Notes under the pieces: generated by a model
The model's database searches: none
What the model was told of the DNA's origin: nothing
What the model saw: the letters and a program-made list of their open reading frames with translations, nothing else
Assembly (NCBI GenBank): GCA_035493515.1
Contig: DATJID010000058.1
Coordinates: 1,201-65,200 of the forward strand
Source of the DNA: Candidatus Binataceae bacterium
Lineage (GTDB): Bacteria > Desulfobacterota > Binatia > Binatales > Binataceae
Length of the DNA: 64,000 nt
Direction: 5' to 3'
Made by a program: the position numbers and the translations under genes
Part shown: positions 16,185-54,206 of the stretch, piece by piece
How positions within the stretch are numbered: position 1 is the first letter of the stretch
Layout: every line of letters begins with the position of its first letter

Positions 16185-16394
16185 TGCTACCGCGAGCCAC
16201 CAGGATGGGGGCTTAGCTATTGATTGCCACCTCTTGAACGCGGCTAAGACAGCTTGATTTTTGTTGCATACCGGAAACGATCGAAATTAGGTTAAGAATC
16301 GCTGCTTGCCCCGGAGGCTGTCCATCCTTAATCGGATCAAGACCGATTGTCGCTCTGGAGACGCGAGCGTCGCATCGGCCGACAGGAGGAGGCA

Positions 16395-17693
16395 ATGAGA
16401 GCCAGGTTATTCACACCCGCGATTCTCTGTGCCGTCGCGATTACTTTGATGACAACTGCCTGGGCCCAAGCGCCAGCTCCGCTCGCCGCGCCCAAGGCGC
16501 AGAACCAGATCGGCTTTCCCGCCAAGCTCTATTCGTGGGTAATTCCGCCAGATAATCCGCAGACCCCTGCGAAGGTCGAGCTTGGCCGCAAGCTCTTCTT
16601 CGACGATCGTCTCTCGGCCGACGGCACCGTGTCGTGCGATCAATGCCATGCGCCCGCCAAGGGCTTCACCGATCAGCTTCCGGCCTCGATGGGTATTCAT
16701 CACGCGTTCGGACAGCGCAACGCCCCGACTGTTTTGAACGCCCTGTTCAACACGCTCCAGTTCTGGGACGGCCGCGCACCCACGCTGGAGAAGCAGATCG
16801 AAGGTCCGATCCTCAACCCTGTCGAGATGGGAAATAAGAGCTTTGACGACGTGGTCGCGAAAGTGAAAGCGTTTCCCGAATACCAGCAGTCATTCCAGAC
16901 GGTGTTCAACGGCGCCATCACGATGGACAATATCGAGAAAGCCATCGCGGCCTACGAGCGCACCCAGACCGCCTTCGATACGCCCTTCGACCGCTTTATG
17001 GCGGGCGACCAGAAGGCGATAAATGCCAGCGCCAAACGCGGATGGTCGCTGTTCAACGGCAAGGGCCGCTGCATGAGCTGCCACGGATGGAACCCGACGC
17101 AACCCCTGTTCACCGACAATCGCTTCCATAATATCGGCGTATCGGCGCACAAGTCGGACTTCGTTCCGTTGGCGCGCAAAGCATTGGTATTGACCTCGCA
17201 AGGAGGCGGCGGGTTGCAGCAACTCGACCAACTGGCAATCCAGTCCGATATGAGCGGGCTCGGCCGCTTCCTGGTAACCAAACAGCCACACGATATCGGC
17301 GGCTTCCGCACAATGGGTTTGCGCAACCTTCTGGTGACTGAGCCCTACTTTCATGACGGTTCGCAGCAAACCCTTTGGGACGTGCTGGACCATTACAACA
17401 AAGGCGGCGTACAGAATCCTTATCTCGATGGCGGCCTGCTTCCGCTCGGACTCAGCGAGTCCGAAGAAGATGATGTGATTGCTTTCCTCGCGACCCTGAC
17501 GAGCCCGGAATACGCAGGCGTCTCGAACGAGGAGCTCGAAAAGCAGCGCGCACGGTCCAAGACCGACCGTCCGCAGCGGGACGAGGCGGCCGCTATGGGC
17601 AGAGCCGGTCTCGGTCCCGGTTTCAAGGGACCGTTCGGCGATATGACGCCGGCACAGAACGAAGAGAATCCCGCCTCACTAGGCGGCAACTGA
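16395..17693 (+). CDS. Di-haem cytochrome c peroxidase / MauG family protein
   Basis: Signal peptide. Two CXXCH motifs (CDQCH, CMSCH). GQRNAPTVLNA, FWDGRA and PYFHDGS blocks. Confidence 0.9.
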   Translation: MRARLFTPAILCAVAITLMTTAWAQAPAPLAAPKAQNQIGFPAKLYSWVIPPDNPQTPAKVELGRKLFFDDRLSADGTVSCDQCHAPAKGFTDQLPASMGIHHAFGQRNAPTVLNALFNTLQFWDGRAPTLEKQIEGPILNPVEMGNKSFDDVVAKVKAFPEYQQSFQTVFNGAITMDNIEKAIAAYERTQTAFDTPFDRFMAGDQKAINASAKRGWSLFNGKGRCMSCHGWNPTQPLFTDNRFHNIGVSAHKSDFVPLARKALVLTSQGGGGLQQLDQLAIQSDMSGLGRFLVTKQPHDIGGFRTMGLRNLLVTEPYFHDGSQQTLWDVLDHYNKGGVQNPYLDGGLLPLGLSESEEDDVIAFLATLTSPEYAGVSNEELEKQRARSKTDRPQRDEAAAMGRAGLGPGFKGPFGDMTPAQNEENPASLGGN

Positions 17694-45363: not shown

Positions 45364-46902
45364 TCAGTCGAGTCGATAGCGGCGCAGGCGGGCATAGAGC
45401 CGCTTGCGAGACACGCCCAACAGCTTGGCGGCGCGAAGTTTGTTGCCGCCGGTCGAGGCCAGCGCGCGCCGAATGAGATCGCGCTCGTTATCAATGAAAC
45501 TGAGGGTGGGTGAATCAGCCACCGGAACAGCTTGTGGAGCCGGGGCCATGCCTGCTGCGGCCGCGACCGCTGGGGGCAGGTCGGCAATGCGAATCGTATC
45601 TGCGGTTCCAAAAGTGAAAGCTGACTCAATCGCGTTCGAAAGCTCGCGCACGTTTCCGGGCCAGTTGTAACGATTCATCGAGTCCAGCGCCTGCGGTGCG
45701 ATTCCGACGATCGCCGCGGGCCTCATCATGCGCCGGTTGAAAAGCGCGATGAAATGGTCGGTCAGCAGCGGAATGTCGGCCAGGCGCTCGCGCAACGGTG
45801 GCACCTCGATCAGATTGACCTGAAGGCGGTAGTAGAGGTCCTCGCGCAGATGGCCCTCGCGGACCGCGACCTGCGGGTCGCGATTGCTGCAGGCGATCAC
45901 GCGGACGTCGAACGTCACTTCGCGGGTCGATCCGACCGGCCGTACCGTGCGTTCCTGAAGGGCCCGCAAAAGCTTGCTCTGGGTGGCCGCGCTCATCTCG
46001 GTGATTTCGTCGAGGAACAAAGAGCCGCCTTCGGCCGCGCGAAACAGTCCCGGGTAGTCGATGGTGGCGCCGCTGAACGCGCCGCGCTTGTAGCCAAAAA
46101 GCTCGCTCTCGATAAGTTCGCGGGGAATCGCGGCGCAATTGAGCGCGACGAACGGCATCGCCGGCGTGCGCGAGCACTCATGCACCGCCCGCGCCACCAA
46201 TTCCTTGCCAGTGCCACTTTCGCCGACGATCAGTACGGTGCCACGCACACCCGCCGCCGACTCGATCCGCGCGTACAGTCGCCGCATCACCGGCGTAGCA
46301 CCGACCAAACCATGAAAGTTGGTCCGCAGCTCTCCCGCGAGCAGGCCGGCCTCCTTCTCGAGGCTCTGAATCCGCGCCGCGGCGAGCGTTTCCTGGTTTC
46401 TGAAATAGGCCTCGGCCAGCGCGATAATCCGGCAGTGGCTGACCTTGTCGAACACTCGGTACATCGACCAATCCACGCCGTGCGGGAAATTCGCGATCGC
46501 GCTCTCCTCGAACAGATGCATTGAGGCGACGACCTCAGCGAATGGCACCCGCCGCTGCGCCAGCGTGACGCCAATCCGGCGCATCCGGATCACGAACTGC
46601 TCGAAGGTGCCCGCGCGCAAGGTCTCGGTCGTAGCGTCGAGGTCCAGGCCGCAGATCTCGAAGAACTCGCTTTGCGCGAGCGAACGCTCGTCGCCGAAAT
46701 GCAGCAGGTAGAGCTGATACCAATGCTCGAGGATTTCCCTGCGATGCCCGGCGAGCGCATCCATGACTGGTCCCAGCTCGGCCAGTTCATGGTCCCAGAG
46801 CAGATGATAGTAGCTGAGATTATTGCGATGGACCGCCGGTGCTGCAGGCGGCTTAGGTTGGGCCACGGACGATTTACTACCAGTCTTCGCCCCGCCCGGC
46901 AA
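45364..46902 (-). CDS. Sigma54-dependent transcriptional activator (bacterial enhancer-binding protein, EBP) with a non-receiver N-terminal sensor domain and a Fis-type HTH
   Basis: LIVGESGTGKELVARAVH, ESELFGYKRGAFSGA (GAFTGA variant), RVIACSNRD and a C-terminal GGNKLRAAKLLGVSRKRLYARL. Confidence 0.9.
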   Translation of the reverse strand: MPGGAKTGSKSSVAQPKPPAAPAVHRNNLSYYHLLWDHELAELGPVMDALAGHRREILEHWYQLYLLHFGDERSLAQSEFFEICGLDLDATTETLRAGTFEQFVIRMRRIGVTLAQRRVPFAEVVASMHLFEESAIANFPHGVDWSMYRVFDKVSHCRIIALAEAYFRNQETLAAARIQSLEKEAGLLAGELRTNFHGLVGATPVMRRLYARIESAAGVRGTVLIVGESGTGKELVARAVHECSRTPAMPFVALNCAAIPRELIESELFGYKRGAFSGATIDYPGLFRAAEGGSLFLDEITEMSAATQSKLLRALQERTVRPVGSTREVTFDVRVIACSNRDPQVAVREGHLREDLYYRLQVNLIEVPPLRERLADIPLLTDHFIALFNRRMMRPAAIVGIAPQALDSMNRYNWPGNVRELSNAIESAFTFGTADTIRIADLPPAVAAAAGMAPAPQAVPVADSPTLSFIDNERDLIRRALASTGGNKLRAAKLLGVSRKRLYARLRRYRLD

Positions 46903-47787: not shown

Positions 47788-47803
47788 GGGCACGCTCGTT
47801 GCT
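47788..47803 (+). promoter_or_regulatory. Sigma54 promoter candidate upstream of the porin-cytochrome-NirK-like operon
   Basis: GGGCACGCTCGTTGCT (GGCACG-N4-TTGCT). The -12 element is 43 nt upstream of the ATG at 47846. Confidence 0.55.
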
Positions 47804-47845: not shown

Positions 47846-49387
47846 ATGGCGTCTAGAAAATCCGGAGCTCGGATCCTGGCGATTGTCGCTTTGACGGCGG
47901 TCGTCCTCGTGATGGCTATAATGACAGCAGCGCCTAGGGCGTTGGCAGACGACGCTGAGGTGCAGGCCAAGGCGCTCAAACAAGTCGAACGCGAGTTGCG
48001 CCAATTGCGGGCGGATCGTGCTCGCGACCGCAAACTGATCGAGAAGCTCGAAGAAAAGCTCGACCAGGTGCAATCGCAGGACAGCCAGATCCGCACCACC
48101 AATCAGCAGCTTCAAACCAGTACCAAGCAACTGCAGAACAGTAATCAGCAGTTGCAGACAAAAACTGACGAGCAGCTGAAGCAAATTCAGGCCGAAGTAG
48201 CAGAAGGGCCCTCTGAGCGGCAGTTTGCGAAAGCGATCGGCGGCTACATGGGGACGCATCAATTCACGCTGACCGGCGCGGCGGCAGGAGACTTCGTTTA
48301 TGATCGGCAGAACGGTCAGAACACCTTCGCTCTCACTTTCGAACCGTTGATGCTCTATCGTCCGAAGGATTGGCTCTTGTTCGAAGGAGAATTTGAAGCT
48401 GCGTTCGATCCAGGGTCCGGCGCTTCCTTTGACGCTCCCGTCGCCACCGCTCAGATATTCCTCAACGACTACATGGAGATAGTGCTGGGCATCTTCGACC
48501 AGCCATTCGGCGACTGGTTCGAAGATCAAGGACCACTGTGGGTAAACCGCTTCATCACCGCGCCGCTTCCTTTCGGGACCGCTGCGCTGGTGCCGCCGTC
48601 GGATATCGGGATGCAGTTGCGCGGCGGCTATCAATGGGGTCAGCTCGGGCAGGATGCCGACTACACGGCTTGGGTAGCCAACGGGCCGAGCTATGATTCC
48701 TCGTTGCCGCAGCCGACCATCGGACAGGAACTCAACGGTGTCAATAACATCACTACAAACACCAACGGCAAAGCTTACGGGGCGCGGCTGCGCTTTTATC
48801 CATTCCCGCTCGACAGCAAATTGGGCCGGCTAGAACTCGGGGCGTCGACCTACAACGGGAAGTGGCAAAACGGCCTGTGGCTCAATGCCTGGGACGTGGA
48901 CTTCGCGTATCGTCGGGGGAACCTCCAAACGCGCGGAGAATACATGGAGGCCTACAGGCAGATGCCGGCTGGATCCGGTCCTGACAATCGCCAAGGGTGG
49001 TACTTCCAGGCCGGCTACTTCCTCACCGGCTTGCGGCTTCCCTTCCTCAGCAGAGACCTCAACAGCTATCTGAGCAGGCTGGAGCCGCTAGTGCGCTACT
49101 CCGGGGTCAACCAGCGCGCGGTGGTTGCCGAAGAGATCTCCACCACGCCAGGTCTCGGCTTCAATGGCTCGCCCTCGATTTTTGCTCCGCATGCGCGCGA
49201 GGTTGCACTCGGCCTCGATTACTGGATAGCGCCATCGATCGTATGGCAGACCGAGGTCGATTTCGAGCTGCCCCGTGCAGGCGGCACGCTCTACTCGTTC
49301 AACGGCGAGAGCACACCAAGCGCAAGCAGCGTGGGCGCCACGCCCAACGACCGCGCAATCCTGACTCAGTTTGCGGTCGGCTTCTAA
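47846..49387 (+). CDS. Outer-membrane porin (phosphate-selective porin O/P-like) with an N-terminal Gln-rich coiled coil
   Basis: Signal peptide MASRKSGARILAIVALTAVVLVMA. Coiled coil with QQLQ repeats. Alternating beta-strand pattern. Terminal ...LTQFAVGF (C-terminal Phe). Internal ATG with GGAGGGGGAG upstream. Confidence 0.7.
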   Translation: MASRKSGARILAIVALTAVVLVMAIMTAAPRALADDAEVQAKALKQVERELRQLRADRARDRKLIEKLEEKLDQVQSQDSQIRTTNQQLQTSTKQLQNSNQQLQTKTDEQLKQIQAEVAEGPSERQFAKAIGGYMGTHQFTLTGAAAGDFVYDRQNGQNTFALTFEPLMLYRPKDWLLFEGEFEAAFDPGSGASFDAPVATAQIFLNDYMEIVLGIFDQPFGDWFEDQGPLWVNRFITAPLPFGTAALVPPSDIGMQLRGGYQWGQLGQDADYTAWVANGPSYDSSLPQPTIGQELNGVNNITTNTNGKAYGARLRFYPFPLDSKLGRLELGASTYNGKWQNGLWLNAWDVDFAYRRGNLQTRGEYMEAYRQMPAGSGPDNRQGWYFQAGYFLTGLRLPFLSRDLNSYLSRLEPLVRYSGVNQRAVVAEEISTTPGLGFNGSPSIFAPHAREVALGLDYWIAPSIVWQTEVDFELPRAGGTLYSFNGESTPSASSVGATPNDRAILTQFAVGF

Positions 49388-49391
49388 AGGA

Positions 49392-49682
49392 ATGAAAGCG
49401 ATGACTGGAAAGCATCTTGCAAAAATCCTCGCGCTCGCAATCGCCGGGCTGACGCTCTCGGTCGCCGCCATGGCCGAAGAAAGCAAAACCGAAAAGCAAC
49501 AGATGTTTCTGGATGGTGCACGTCTGTGGCCCGTGTACTGCTCGCAATGCCATAACGCGCGCCCTGGATCGGAGTTTTCTCCCGCGCAGTGGGACATCAT
49601 CATGATGCACATGCGTACACAGTCGAATATGCCCGCGAAAGATGCGCGGGCAATCAAGGAGTATCTGAAGGGTGGCCGCTGA
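49392..49682 (+). CDS. Small periplasmic mono-haem cytochrome c
   Basis: Signal peptide plus CSQCH. Confidence 0.8.
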   Translation: MKAMTGKHLAKILALAIAGLTLSVAAMAEESKTEKQQMFLDGARLWPVYCSQCHNARPGSEFSPAQWDIIMMHMRTQSNMPAKDARAIKEYLKGGR

Positions 49683-49731
49683 AGAATGGCGACGCATGGC
49701 GAACTCATTCAAGGGAAGGCATATAAAGGGT

Positions 49732-50100
49732 ATGAAGATGATCGCTCGTCCGCTAGTCATTTCGGCTCTTGTTGTTGCACTCACCGCTATCTCATTTGGA
49801 ACAGACTACGCCCAGGATGATATCCCGGTCGCCACAACATTCCAGGTCTATTGCTCGCGCTGTCACGGAGACAAAGGGCAAGGTGACGGAGCGGATGGCG
49901 CGACCTTGTCGCCCAAACCGCGCGATTTTACCGACTGTGCGCTCATGAACAAGATACCCGACGCGACGATCGTAAAGGCGATCAAGAATGGCGGCGCCTC
50001 GGTCGACCTCAGCCGTGACATGCCAGCCTGGGGTGAAGAGCTTAAGGACAAGAAAATCAACGCGCTGGCTGCCTACGTCCGCACCTTCTGCCACAAGTAG
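49732..50100 (+). CDS. Periplasmic mono-haem cytochrome c (paralogue A)
   Basis: Signal peptide, CSRCHG, a DMPAW Met-ligand region, and an extra conserved Cys pair (DFTDC...RTFCHK). Confidence 0.8.
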   Translation: MKMIARPLVISALVVALTAISFGTDYAQDDIPVATTFQVYCSRCHGDKGQGDGADGATLSPKPRDFTDCALMNKIPDATIVKAIKNGGASVDLSRDMPAWGEELKDKKINALAAYVRTFCHK

Positions 50101-50128
50101 CGGACCTCGGATACAAGGAGACGATACT

Positions 50129-51052
50129 ATGGTTCCGCTAATTTCCGGTTTGCCGGCAAAGCCGCGATATATCTTGCACCGCGCTGCCAGGACCGCCGCG
50201 CTCGCGATGCTGGTCGTGGCTGCAACGGCCAGCCTGCCGCGTTCCGCGCATGCCTCGGAGAAAAGCTTCATGCTCACGGCGGAAAGAAAGCGGGTGAGCG
50301 TGGGCGGCGGATTGACCTACAACGCGTGGACCTACAATGGAACGGTGCCGGGACCCGTTCTGAAGGTTATGCAGGGTGATGAAGTGAAGATCGACCTGAT
50401 CAACCACACCAAGGATGCCCATGGGATAAACGTTCACGCGGCGCAGATATCGCCGCAACACTTCGACGGCGACCCGATGAAATCCGTTAGCTACAGCTTT
50501 CCAGCAGATGTCCCCGGCGTTTTCGTCTACCACTGCACCGCGGCGCCCATCCTCGATCACATCGCCAGCGGCATGTATGGGATGATGATCGTCGAACCGA
50601 AGGCCGGATGGCCCGACGGAAATGCGCAGGAGGTCACGATCGTGCAGGGCGAATTGTACGGCCTCCCAGACGCGCACGGATTCATCGTGGGATCCCATGG
50701 CAAAATGGTCGAGGCCCGGCCCGATTTCGTCGTGTTCAACGGAGCACTGCACAGATACGACGTCGAACATCCCATCGAAATCAAGGTTGGGAAGCTGGTT
50801 CGCGTGTTCTTTGCCAACGCCGGCCCCAACCTCACCTCCGCCTTTCACGTCACCGGCGCACTGTTCGACACAGTGTACAAGAGCGGCAACCCGGCCAATG
50901 CGCTGCATGGTCTGGATACTCTCGAGGTTCCTCCAAGCGACGGTGCGGTCTTCGAGTTTCGTGTTACCGAGCCCGGTGACTACCAGTTTATGGACCTGAA
51001 CCGGGCGCAACAGTATAAAGGCGCCAATGGAGTCTTTCGGGCCACGCCGTGA
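50129..51052 (+). CDS. NirK-like two-cupredoxin-domain copper protein (copper nitrite reductase family, atypical)
   Basis: AAGGAG 8 nt upstream and a Sec signal. HGINVHAA, VYHCTAAPILDHIASGMYGMMIV (type-1 Cu Cys/His/Met loop) and FVVFNG...SAFHVTGALFD. Confidence 0.8.
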   Translation: MVPLISGLPAKPRYILHRAARTAALAMLVVAATASLPRSAHASEKSFMLTAERKRVSVGGGLTYNAWTYNGTVPGPVLKVMQGDEVKIDLINHTKDAHGINVHAAQISPQHFDGDPMKSVSYSFPADVPGVFVYHCTAAPILDHIASGMYGMMIVEPKAGWPDGNAQEVTIVQGELYGLPDAHGFIVGSHGKMVEARPDFVVFNGALHRYDVEHPIEIKVGKLVRVFFANAGPNLTSAFHVTGALFDTVYKSGNPANALHGLDTLEVPPSDGAVFEFRVTEPGDYQFMDLNRAQQYKGANGVFRATP

Positions 51053-51127
51053 TTACGATCGATCGTGTGGAACTGTCGACGTGACCGAACCCGGAAGCTC
51101 AAATGACTCAAGGAATGAAGTTGCCGC

Positions 51128-51484
51128 ATGTTGAAACTCCTCGTGGCCGCGCTCATCGGTGCTGTGGCGTGCACCGCACTAGCAGCGACACCGGCTTGGA
51201 CCGACAGCGCCGAAGAAAACTACGTGACCTACTGCGCGAGATGCCATGGGGAGGACGGGAACGGCGATGGCCCTTCGGTGGCCTCGCTGAAAATCACGCC
51301 GCAAAGCTTCAGCAGCTGCGCCCAAATGTGGAAGATCTCCGACGAGACAATGTTCAAGGCAATCAAGGGCGGCGGCGCCTCGGTTGGCTCGTCCGGCGAC
51401 ATGCCGGGCTGGAGCGTGGACCTCAGCGATGACGAAATTCACGACCTGGTGAATTACGTCCGCACTTTCTGCAAGAAGAAATAG
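51128..51484 (+). CDS. Periplasmic mono-haem cytochrome c (paralogue B)
   Basis: Signal peptide, CARCHG, DMPGW, and the same extra Cys pair (SFSSC...RTFCKKK). Clearly alignable to the 49732 product. Confidence 0.8.
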   Translation: MLKLLVAALIGAVACTALAATPAWTDSAEENYVTYCARCHGEDGNGDGPSVASLKITPQSFSSCAQMWKISDETMFKAIKGGGASVGSSGDMPGWSVDLSDDEIHDLVNYVRTFCKKK

Positions 51485-51639
51485 CGACACCCGGTGCCGG
51501 CGCGGCAACCCATAATTTTAGCTGCAATCGTCCTGTGCGCGCTTGAGCACAGTCGGCGCTTCGGATAGCTTCACCCGGACGGCCGCTGCCGATTTCTGCC
51601 AAAGCCACCGGCAGGCCATTTCAAGGGAGGAAATTTCTG

Positions 51640-52158
51640 ATGAGTGTTATCAAGTATCTTGCCGCCGGCGCGGCTCTCGCGATGTTCTGCACGCTCGGCG
51701 TGGTTCATCCCGCAGCGGCGCAAACCGGCTCGGCCGCAGGCAAAACGCAGCGGCAGCTGGATATCGCGGCCGCGCGCGCAGACCGCAAAGCGATTGTCGG
51801 CGCAAATATGAATCTAAGCGAAGCGCAGGCCAAAGCGTTCTGGCCGCTCTACGACGCTTACGAGGCCCGCATGGATAAGCTCGACGATCGTCATGCCGCC
51901 GAGGTCAAAGCCTACGCCGAGCACTACCAGACGCTGACCGACAAGGATGCCTCGAACAAGCTCGACGAAGTGATAGCGATCAAGCAGGCGCGCCTCGACG
52001 TGCAGAAGGAATTTGTGCCCAAGTTCCGCGCCGCCACCGGGTCGATCAACACAACCCGGTTTTACCAGATTGATAACAAGCTGAGCGCGATGATTCAGTG
52101 CGACATCGCGCAGATCGTTCCGCTCGCCCGTCCGGGCACCAAGACCGCGAACGAGTAG
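51640..52158 (+). CDS. Periplasmic helical protein, possibly Spy/CpxP-like (LTXXQ-type)
   Basis: Signal peptide. The helical repeats include LSEAQAKAFWPLYDAY. GGGAGGAAA upstream. The functional call is weak. Confidence 0.45.
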   Translation: MSVIKYLAAGAALAMFCTLGVVHPAAAQTGSAAGKTQRQLDIAAARADRKAIVGANMNLSEAQAKAFWPLYDAYEARMDKLDDRHAAEVKAYAEHYQTLTDKDASNKLDEVIAIKQARLDVQKEFVPKFRAATGSINTTRFYQIDNKLSAMIQCDIAQIVPLARPGTKTANE

Positions 52159-52379: not shown

Positions 52380-52907
52380 TCAGGTTTTAGCGCCCAGCCG
52401 AATCGCCGTAGTGCAGTGATAGGCGAAGTTCTTCGCGCCGAAGCACCAGATGATGTCGTTATCCAGCTGCGGCCGGTAGATCGGCACCTGCCCCTTATTG
52501 TTGTCGCAGAAGCAGCGGTTGCATACGTCCTTACCGCAGCAGTCACGGTACGCAATGATGTATTCCTTGCCGTCGGTCGGATGCTGGCACGTCCCCACCC
52601 ACGAAGTTGGCGACGCCACCGTGCCCGGCGGGCACGAGGTCAGCGCTCCACCGCAGCAACTGCACAGGTAGCCGTCGAAGCCGCAGTAGCGCCAGTAATC
52701 GCAACTCGTGAGATCGCCGCCCTCGCCCTCTGCCGCGGCCCCGTTCTCACCGCTCATCTGCGCGTGCGCCTGCTCGACCACGCGGTTGATCGGCAACAGC
52801 GGGATCATCATCCCACCGACCAACGCCTTGCCCAGGTAGCCGAGAAAGCCGCGCCGCGAGGTCCGCTGCGCCACCGTTCGTGAAAGACGTTCTACCAGTC
52901 GATCCAT
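52380..52907 (-). CDS. mauA: TTQ-type amine dehydrogenase small (light) subunit, MauA/AauA-like
   Basis: TAT leader TSRRGFLGYLGKALVGG. CDYWRYCGFDGYLCSCCGG..CPPGT..SWVGTC..YIIAYRDCCGKDVC..CFC...DNDIIWCFGA..YHCT is almost collinear with known methylamine dehydrogenase light chains. This includes both TTQ tryptophans as I recall them (SW, IIW). AGGAGA upstream of the ATG at 52907. Confidence 0.9.
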   Translation of the reverse strand: MDRLVERLSRTVAQRTSRRGFLGYLGKALVGGMMIPLLPINRVVEQAHAQMSGENGAAAEGEGGDLTSCDYWRYCGFDGYLCSCCGGALTSCPPGTVASPTSWVGTCQHPTDGKEYIIAYRDCCGKDVCNRCFCDNNKGQVPIYRPQLDNDIIWCFGAKNFAYHCTTAIRLGAKT

Positions 52908-53051
52908 TCGCCGTCTCCTGTTTCGCGGGTGGCGCCGGATTTCCACCAGGCCGTTTCCCGGCGCTCCCCTGTTCCTGCCAATAGCACCGCCCGTTGCGCG
53001 ACGCCAGTCGCGCCCGCGTGGGACCTCAACTGGTCGCGTGTTCAGCAGCTA

Positions 53052-54206
53052 CTACAGCCCGAACAACGTGTAAGGGTGCTGGCTGACCTCGTTGACCGTG
53101 CCCAGGTATCTGCCTTTGAGCGCAGAGAAAATTTGCAGCTTCGACTCGCTTGTCACCAGCGCGAACAGCAGCGGGTTGTCGTCCTGGCTGACCTTGATCG
53201 CATTGGACTGCAAGGGCATCGGAATCCTGGCGACGCGCTTATGATCGTTGACGTCGTACACCCAGACCTCCGGACCGGCCGACTTTTGTGTCCACTCGCC
53301 GCCCTGATGCATCAGTACGAAAATCAGGTGTCCTGGCGTATAGCCGGCGACCGGCTGCCAGCCGCCTGGCCGCCAACCTTCCTTCTTCTCCGCATCGCTC
53401 AGCATCGACCACCTCTCTGCCGGCTCCGCCGGACTCACGCCGAGGTCCATCGGATAGACCATGCCATGGTAGCTGACGAAATAGGCTTTTTTGTCGATCA
53501 TCGCCGGCAACTGAAAGACCGGGTCCTTCTCGACGTCGAAAAACGGCTTGGCCGTGCGCTTTTGCGAAGTCGTCTTGGCGCTGTCGTCGAAGTCAGTCGT
53601 CAGCATCGAGCCATCGGCGCATACAGAGGCGAATTGGCGATCGCCCAGAATCAATATTTCGGAGCAGCCCGGCGTCTGAATCTCGCCGGCCACCTTCTTG
53701 CCGTCGAGGTCGACCGCAGTGACCGAGGTCGCGGGAGTCAAATTCAGCAGCAAGACAAAGCGCCCGTCAGGCGTCACGCCCATCGAACTCGGATCGGCCA
53801 GCGCGAGCTGACGTTTGCTGGTGATTGGAATCTCGCCAATTCGCGACAGATGAGTAGCGTCGTAGATCGACAGTACGTCTGTGCGATCGCCCTGCGTGCC
53901 GCGCGAATAAAAGGTATCCGCCAGGTAGAAAAATTTGTGGTCGGGTGACGGCGCGAACATTGCGGCCAAACCGCCCGAAAGGTTGCCGAGTACTTTGTGC
54001 GTATCGCCGTCGATCAGCACGATCGGCGTCATCATTATGGAACCTGATAACGGAGTCATGGTCGCGATCCAATGCGGCGAATAGGCCGGCAGTTGCAAGA
54101 CCGTGACTTGTTCATTGGGTGGCATCTGGGCGAGCGCTCCCGGGCCGCCGCGTCCCATCACGACCATGAGGATTGCGAGGAAAAGGAATCCCAACCTTTT
54201 AGTCAT
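53052..54206 (-). CDS. mauB: Amine dehydrogenase large (heavy) subunit, MauB/AauB-like beta-propeller
   Basis: Signal peptide. DTFYSRGTQGDRTDVLSIYD, GVTPDGRFVLLLNLTPATSVTAVD, the Cys pair GCSEILI...SVCADGS, and GWRPGGWQ. Confidence 0.9.
   Translation of the reverse strand: MTKRLGFLFLAILMVVMGRGGPGALAQMPPNEQVTVLQLPAYSPHWIATMTPLSGSIMMTPIVLIDGDTHKVLGNLSGGLAAMFAPSPDHKFFYLADTFYSRGTQGDRTDVLSIYDATHLSRIGEIPITSKRQLALADPSSMGVTPDGRFVLLLNLTPATSVTAVDLDGKKVAGEIQTPGCSEILILGDRQFASVCADGSMLTTDFDDSAKTTSQKRTAKPFFDVEKDPVFQLPAMIDKKAYFVSYHGMVYPMDLGVSPAEPAERWSMLSDAEKKEGWRPGGWQPVAGYTPGHLIFVLMHQGGEWTQKSAGPEVWVYDVNDHKRVARIPMPLQSNAIKVSQDDNPLLFALVTSESKLQIFSALKGRYLGTVNEVSQHPYTLFGL

Follow-up and report, generated by a model that had tools for sequence, protein, structure and literature searches.

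Described TTQ amine dehydrogenases and the Binataceae gene pair

Two described systems with the cofactor tryptophan tryptophylquinone (TTQ) bear on a mauB-mauA gene pair that we analyzed in a Candidatus Binataceae genome. Methylamine dehydrogenase (MADH), known from Paracoccus denitrificans, P. versutus and Methylorubrum (PDB 2BBK, 3C75, 3L4M), is encoded by clusters of the order mauFBEDACJG(L)MN. Aromatic amine dehydrogenase (AADH) of Alcaligenes faecalis (PDB 2AGL and others) is encoded by aauBEDA-orf2, which reportedly lacks mauG and in which orf-2 is said to specify a small monohaem cytochrome c. The pair studied here lies in a stretch of 64,000 nucleotides (C58:1201-65200, hereafter the window) of an assembly of 2.53 Mb that is 75% complete, and close relatives of this genome are soil metagenome-assembled genomes labelled Candidatus Binataceae or 'uncultured delta proteobacterium'. 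The explanation that we favor, and hold with good confidence as a whole, is that the pair is a functional TTQ dehydrogenase paralogue that uses MauE and MauD in trans. It would encode a periplasmic TTQ-dependent primary-amine dehydrogenase, one of three paralogues, and would go back to a duplication of the mauB-E-D-A-cyt-cyt cluster of its own genus (cyt, cytochrome c gene), with only the two structural genes kept. The light subunit would be exported by the twin-arginine translocation (Tat) system, its disulfides would be formed by the membrane oxidase MauE and the thioredoxin-like MauD of a full cluster on contig C72, and electrons would most likely exit via c-type cytochromes and not via amicyanin. 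The features of the locus are as follows:

52380..52907, minus strand: mauA, light (TTQ-bearing) subunit, 175 aa from the conserved ATG; PF02975, TIGR02659
52908..53051, minus strand: mauB-mauA spacer of 144 nt, with two hairpins and a Shine-Dalgarno site
53052..54206, minus strand: mauB, heavy (beta-propeller) subunit of a TTQ-type amine dehydrogenase, 384 aa; PF06433
54208..54243, minus strand: three copies of the tandem 12-bp unit GGAGAACTGGCR, with the Shine-Dalgarno site of mauB

MauB matched PF06433 with 182.9 bits (cut-off 21) over 322 of the 343 profile positions, and MauA matched PF02975 with 167.6 bits and TIGR02659 with 217.7 bits, exceeding the cut-off of 196.85. MauA aligned end to end with the P. 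versutus precursor 3C75_L (205 bits). Alignment to the Paracoccus light chains 3C75_L and 1MAE_L placed both TTQ tryptophans (SW-V and IIW-C) and all 12 MADH cysteines in MauA, in agreement with the initial annotation, which had described a full cysteine framework and both tryptophans; we take the TTQ-forming residues to be beta-Trp57 and beta-Trp108 in P. denitrificans numbering. The motifs YRDCC, IIWCFG and YHCT were retained. MauA has two further cysteines; with 14 in total it resembles most MauA sequences. The idea that this extra pair forms a special seventh disulfide was ruled out, as 14 cysteines also occur in the MADH of Methylobacillus and Methylophaga. The N-terminus of MauB is a Sec-type signal peptide (MTKRLGFLFLAILMVV...ALAQ) and MauA carries a long twin-arginine leader (...TSRRGFLGYLG...), both conserved in paralogues and orthologues. 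By both subunit domains, the Trp/Cys framework and the export signals, the pair is, as judged from its sequence, a member of the TTQ-dependent amine dehydrogenases (MADH/AADH superfamily).

The longest mauA open reading frame (ORF) spans 52380-52946 on the minus strand (188 aa). The start was assigned to the ATG at 52907 (MDxLVERL), which is kept in 10 orthologues and both paralogues; the upstream alternative, GTG 52946, found no support from relatives and was rejected. With the ATG start, the 144-nt spacing without an ORF that had first been reported held, since no ORF of at least 60 aa was found inside the spacer. It also held that no MauE, MauD, amicyanin or MauG homologue adjoins the pair.

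The pair shares the two-subunit architecture of MADH, and its light chain passes the MADH equivalog cut-off and is alike in tryptophans, the 12 cysteines, motifs and long Tat leader. On the other hand, the heavy chain is only ~31% identical to that of MADH, scores far under the equivalog cut-off (TIGR02658, 192.3 bits against 454.45) and, by PDB comparison, gives ~158 bits to MADH and AADH heavy chains alike. MauE and MauD are not encoded between the two genes, and amicyanin, a true MauG, MauF, MauJ and MauM were not detected in the assembly (MauF, MauJ and MauM by tblastn with the Methylorubrum proteins), whereas the control Methylorubrum locus has all of them. The heavy-chain score, the placement of E and D and the lack of amicyanin and MauG all set the pair apart from methylamine dehydrogenase sensu stricto (mau cluster).

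A full sister cluster in the same genome

Whole-genome searches identified three heavy and three light chain genes, arranged as three mauB/mauA pairs. A second adjacent mauB-mauA (BA) pair lies at C31:27092-28630, and a canonical mauB-E-D-A cluster at C72:26905-29777. The E and D genes of the latter (C72:27989-29087) scored 103 bits for MauE and 238.5 bits for MauD (cut-off 188.6). Its mauA is followed by two paralogous monohaem cytochromes c with one CxxCH each and then by a group II pyridoxal phosphate-dependent decarboxylase (PF00282, 300 bits; G000:C72:30287-32390, L014 12288-14390), which suggests a route from amino acid to amine to aldehyde rather than methylamine use. A search of the rest of the genome for mauE, mauD, mauG and mauC, as the initial annotation had proposed, thus recovered mauE and mauD in the C72 cluster, and neither mauG nor mauC above cut-off. 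A further MauE-family gene is present at C42:19643-20017, which fits a proposal that MauE is a widespread, generalist DsbB-like oxidase and not a dedicated factor (bioRxiv 10.64898/2026.03.05.709764).

Directly upstream of the C72 mauB is a gene whose 594-aa product matches nothing in Pfam or NCBIfam (G000:C72:24938-26722, L014 6939-8723); it was found in the equivalent place in G026 and G002 only.

The C72 cluster follows the grammar of the AADH cluster, in which B-E-D-A precedes small monohaem cytochrome(s) c and both MauG and amicyanin are missing. The heavy chain of the window is equally close to AADH and MADH, and by the MauB tree described next the window pair is a derivative of an aau-type cluster. 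Unlike such a cluster, the window copy has neither E and D nor a cytochrome, and its light-chain motifs are MADH-like (YRDCC, WCFG) as against the YNDCC and WCLG of gammaproteobacterial aau-like proteins.

From related genomes we took 34 loci with MauA or MauE/D matches, added outgroups and built a maximum-likelihood MauB tree. Eight BA pairs of the window type formed one clade (100/100), which was sister (98/98) to the canonical B-E-D-A clade of the same genus. This placement indicates that the window pair originated as a copy of the full cluster of its genus, minus E and D. Within Binataceae, BA-only or rearranged states fell inside groups of B-E-D-A clusters on at least five separate occasions:

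State 1: the window type
State 2: the C31 type
State 3: B-A-cyt-cyt, with E-D convergent to it in G007 and G052 and on a separate contig in G033
State 4: B-A with E-D-cyt-cyt at a distance, 1.77 Mb off in G020 and on separate contigs in G044
State 5: B-A-cyt, with E-D-cyt elsewhere (G027)

An orphan mauA of the window type (97% amino acid identity) without a mauB beside it was observed in a genome of the same genus (L043 9843-10382, G046:C9:96646-96972). Within the canonical cluster it is flanked by the second cytochrome gene and the decarboxylase gene, and the order B-E-D-A-c-c-A occurs likewise in L071 and L078.

Adjacent BA pairs also recur outside this family. In a survey of 80 further MauA loci from many lineages, collected by a MauA alignment pattern search and mapped for mau genes, we found the orders B-A-B-E-D-A-cyt (five loci: L096, L100, L104, L121, L124), B-A-B-A-cyt (two loci: L089, L091), B-A-cyt-cyt, and B-A-cyt-cyt convergent with E-D. 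In the gammaproteobacterial loci of the first two orders, a pair of structural genes shares the E-D set and the cytochrome with a full paralogue, as proposed for the window pair; these satellites adjoin the full cluster, whereas the window pair lies on another contig in a conserved, unrelated neighborhood. The "minimal" locus is therefore ordinary, since its arrangement recurs in many bacteria. It would look minimal because the pair relies on the full sister cluster, and a helper-less mauB-mauA pair of this kind may best be read as a satellite leaning on a full cluster elsewhere and not as a new maturation route.

Conservation and selection

The comparison of gene order in relatives that had been called for revealed the pair in the same neighborhood in 10 further species-level genomes, where genes for an S24 repressor and a family-3 acyltransferase flank one end, and the convergent 172-aa gene, cytochromes and porin flank the other. 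Both frames were intact in all 11 genomes. The median pairwise dN/dS of mauB was 0.126 (55 orthologue pairs, median dS 0.62), that of mauA across the 11 genomes was 0.049, and the mature light chain was almost invariant. The pair is under strong purifying selection, and decay is excluded. Pseudogenization in relatives, raised at the outset as an outcome that would undo the functional reading, was thus not what these genomes contained.

The lack of adjacent helper genes could be taken to mean that the pair is a decaying or silent duplicate, and the MauB stem branch of the window-type clade is indeed longer than that of its sister clade (0.50 against 0.31 changes per site). We regard this as hardly credible, given intact frames in 11 genomes, dN/dS values of 0.05-0.13 at dS 0.4-1.0, and catalytic and cofactor residues that do not vary. 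The pair is a real and conserved TTQ amine dehydrogenase paralogue and is probably active. The contrast between a faster-evolving heavy subunit and an almost frozen light subunit suggests that the copy may have been kept for a different amine substrate.

Supply of MauE and MauD

The absence of helper genes had been put down to either a supply in trans or a different route in this lineage. For the disulfide step we compared 61 Binataceae genomes, 26 with and 35 without MauA. MauD above the curated cut-off was present in 26/26 MauA-positive genomes and in 1/35 MauA-negative ones; counted by genus, the figures were 11/11 and 1/19. MauE-family genes were nearly universal among the 61 genomes. In G020, which has a single BA pair, the E and D genes are those of the block at 1.77 Mb distance. 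Because the co-occurrence of MauD holds across several independent rearrangements, including remote E-D genes in single-pair genomes, it supports use of E and D in trans and argues against a route free of them. Co-occurrence and paralogy together make it well supported that the window pair would use MauE and MauD in this way, so that for mauE and mauD the first half of the early proposal stood and the second did not.

A self-sufficient minimal locus that matures by a route needing neither MauE nor MauD would fit the absence of both genes from between mauB and mauA in 11 orthologous loci. The suggestion that MauE is a generalist oxidase and the second MauE-family gene on contig C42 also lean that way. 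None of the sampled genomes, however, has MauA without a true MauD; the light subunit retains every cysteine of its E/D-dependent relatives, and the sister cluster retains E and D. We therefore consider this route very unlikely.

Several points nevertheless weigh against the satellite explanation. For the use of E and D in trans it draws on co-occurrence and paralogy, the related genomes in the MauD count are non-independent samples, and further helper genes could exist in a genome of which 75% is assembled. In addition, no MauG above cut-off was found in the lineage that could complete TTQ.

Where E-D is split from B-A, the two small cytochromes c stay with E-D (L062, L065 and L066, from G020, G044 and G023, respectively). 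G023 has E-D-cyt-cyt, and no mauA was found in this 95%-complete genome.

MauG, amicyanin and TTQ completion

The initial annotation measured the locus against characterized mau/aau clusters, in which mauE and mauD stand between B and A and amicyanin or azurin is accompanied by the di-haem MauG needed to complete TTQ. This yardstick held for the methylotroph mau type, and its MauG and amicyanin requirement did not hold elsewhere. The dominant order in the 80 surveyed loci was B-E-D-A and then one or two C72 cytochrome homologues. Among the 78 loci not on mauA-alone fragments, MauG was found within 10 kb in 7/78 and amicyanin in 3/78, and most others end in a small cytochrome c. MauG, MauM and amicyanin were confined to the methylotroph type (Methylobacillus, Methylophaga, Methylophilaceae, Hyphomicrobium and the control Methylorubrum). 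MauG above cut-off was present in 0/5 cultured isolates with MauG-less clusters, and Ectopseudomonas composti gave no MauG match at all at E 1e-10. This broader pattern, a small cytochrome c at the end and no MauG in most TTQ clusters of non-methylotrophs, is of more interest than the locus itself, and it is TTQ maturation without MauG that merits experimental work.

The Binataceae followed the same pattern. No MauG above the TIGR03791 cut-off (443.85) and no amicyanin above the TIGR02657 cut-off (110) was found in any of the 61 genomes; the best scores in the genome of the window were 208 and 31 bits, respectively. Because there is no amicyanin in Binataceae, a cytochrome is the likelier acceptor. 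Murphy et al. (PMC8262859), who described mauA and mauB from Binatales, took the acceptor to be amicyanin. The Binatia genes annotated there as "methylamine dehydrogenase with amicyanin" belong to multi-paralogue clusters free of amicyanin and MauG, whose substrates need not be methylamine, one cluster lying beside an amino-acid decarboxylase. This finding bears on claims of methylotrophy for an uncultured phylum.

One gene of the window remains as a candidate MauG surrogate:

16347..17693, plus strand: di-haem enzyme of the cytochrome c peroxidase (CCP)/MauG superfamily, with MbnH and MauG profile matches

As first reported, it is the sole MauG-family gene of the window and is far from the pair; it is also the sole full CCP/MauG-family gene in the assembly. 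The protein is 37% identical to the genuine MauG of Methylorubrum over 336 residues and retains His-Tyr at the position of the MauG tyrosine haem ligand, which indicates a MauG/BthA-like product rather than an ordinary peroxidase; BthA-type and MauG enzymes are among its full-length matches in the PDB. These features would allow the enzyme to complete TTQ for the pair in trans, which would be compatible with the satellite explanation. We consider this doubtful all the same, for the scores stay under both family cut-offs (MbnH, 222 bits against 363; MauG TIGR03791, 208 against 444) and the gene sits in a separate operon of its own with a phosphoesterase and a SoxA-like cytochrome. Orthologues are present in 17/26 MauA-positive and 17/35 MauA-negative genomes, and no CCP/MauG homologue was found in nine MauA-positive genomes (a second check with PF03150 covered five of the nine, among them a genome of 6 contigs and 97% completeness). 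This phyletic pattern indicates that the enzyme is not a dedicated partner of the dehydrogenase. The orthologue of the closest relative (95% identity; G026:C1:327292-328635) also has one in-frame TAG, which could be a sequencing error or mark a pseudogene.

A tentative alternative for this step, somewhat less doubtful than the di-haem enzyme, is that TTQ here and in aau-type clusters generally is completed without a MauG-family enzyme. An undescribed oxidant would then do so, possibly the conserved monohaem cytochromes c at the cluster end, which accompany mauE-mauD where these are split from mauB-mauA, and the window pair would be matured likewise.

The convergent porin-cytochrome operon

The sole multicopper protein of the window and the nearest cytochromes c are encoded, as had been observed at the start, in the operon convergent to mauA (47846-52158). 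From this the initial annotation had speculated on a functional link between amine oxidation and a NirK-like copper/cytochrome module. The porin ORF was probably called too long (from 47717), as relatives match from residue 40 on, and its likely start is 47846. A sigma-54-type -24/-12 site with one mismatch (47788-47803) precedes that start by ~43 nt, and a sigma-54 activator gene lies nearby at 45364-46902. The two-domain copper protein scored 164 bits against TIGR02376 (cut-off 296). Its gene, together with that of a 142-aa cytochrome c (49672-51052), is an insertion in the porin-cytochrome operon.

If the pair were coupled to this operon as its electron acceptor, amine oxidation would be linked to nitrite reduction. 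In every syntenic locus that extends far enough (~10 genomes), the genes for the porin, cyt103, cyt118 and the 172-aa protein converge on mauA; the lack of amicyanin makes cytochromes c likely acceptors, and the sigma-54-like site lies before the porin gene near an activator gene. The NirK-like gene and the extra cytochrome, however, occurred in only 2/10 syntenic loci (the other being L025). Porin homologues were found in 40/61 and homologues of the 172-aa protein in 37/61 Binataceae genomes, with or without mauA, and outside the window genus both are on contigs other than that of mauA. In other genera the porin stands beside a small cupredoxin, in several cases in MauA-free genomes. The two units are convergent and so are not co-transcribed. 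No sigma-54-like site was found before mauB, and the window has as many matches to the pattern as expected by chance. At E 1e-8 the operon cytochromes show no homology to those of the cluster type. Taken together, these observations make the coupling improbable, and the link to the NirK-like module found no support. The neighboring cytochromes by themselves are possible acceptors of the pair.

Spacer, upstream repeat and promoter search

The scan for sigma-70 promoters and terminators around the pair found no promoter-like site and nothing above background. The spacer between mauB and mauA measures 144 nt here and 134-190 nt across orthologues. Alignment and consensus folding of 10 orthologous spacers revealed a variable GC-rich hairpin after the mauB stop, with some compensatory changes, and a 9-bp hairpin, CTGGCGTCG...CGATGCTA, nearly invariant in 10/10 spacers (alignment columns 70-94). 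Since the 9-bp stem never varies among these spacers, covariation neither supports nor refutes it; the element may serve in mRNA processing or stability. An AGGAGA Shine-Dalgarno site is located 7 nt before the mauA ATG. The spacer also contains the motif AACTGGC, which recurs in the repeat upstream of mauB. The copy number of that repeat unit was 1, 2 or 3 among the 11 orthologous loci, with three copies only in the window and one or two in the other 10, a variation that looks like slippage.

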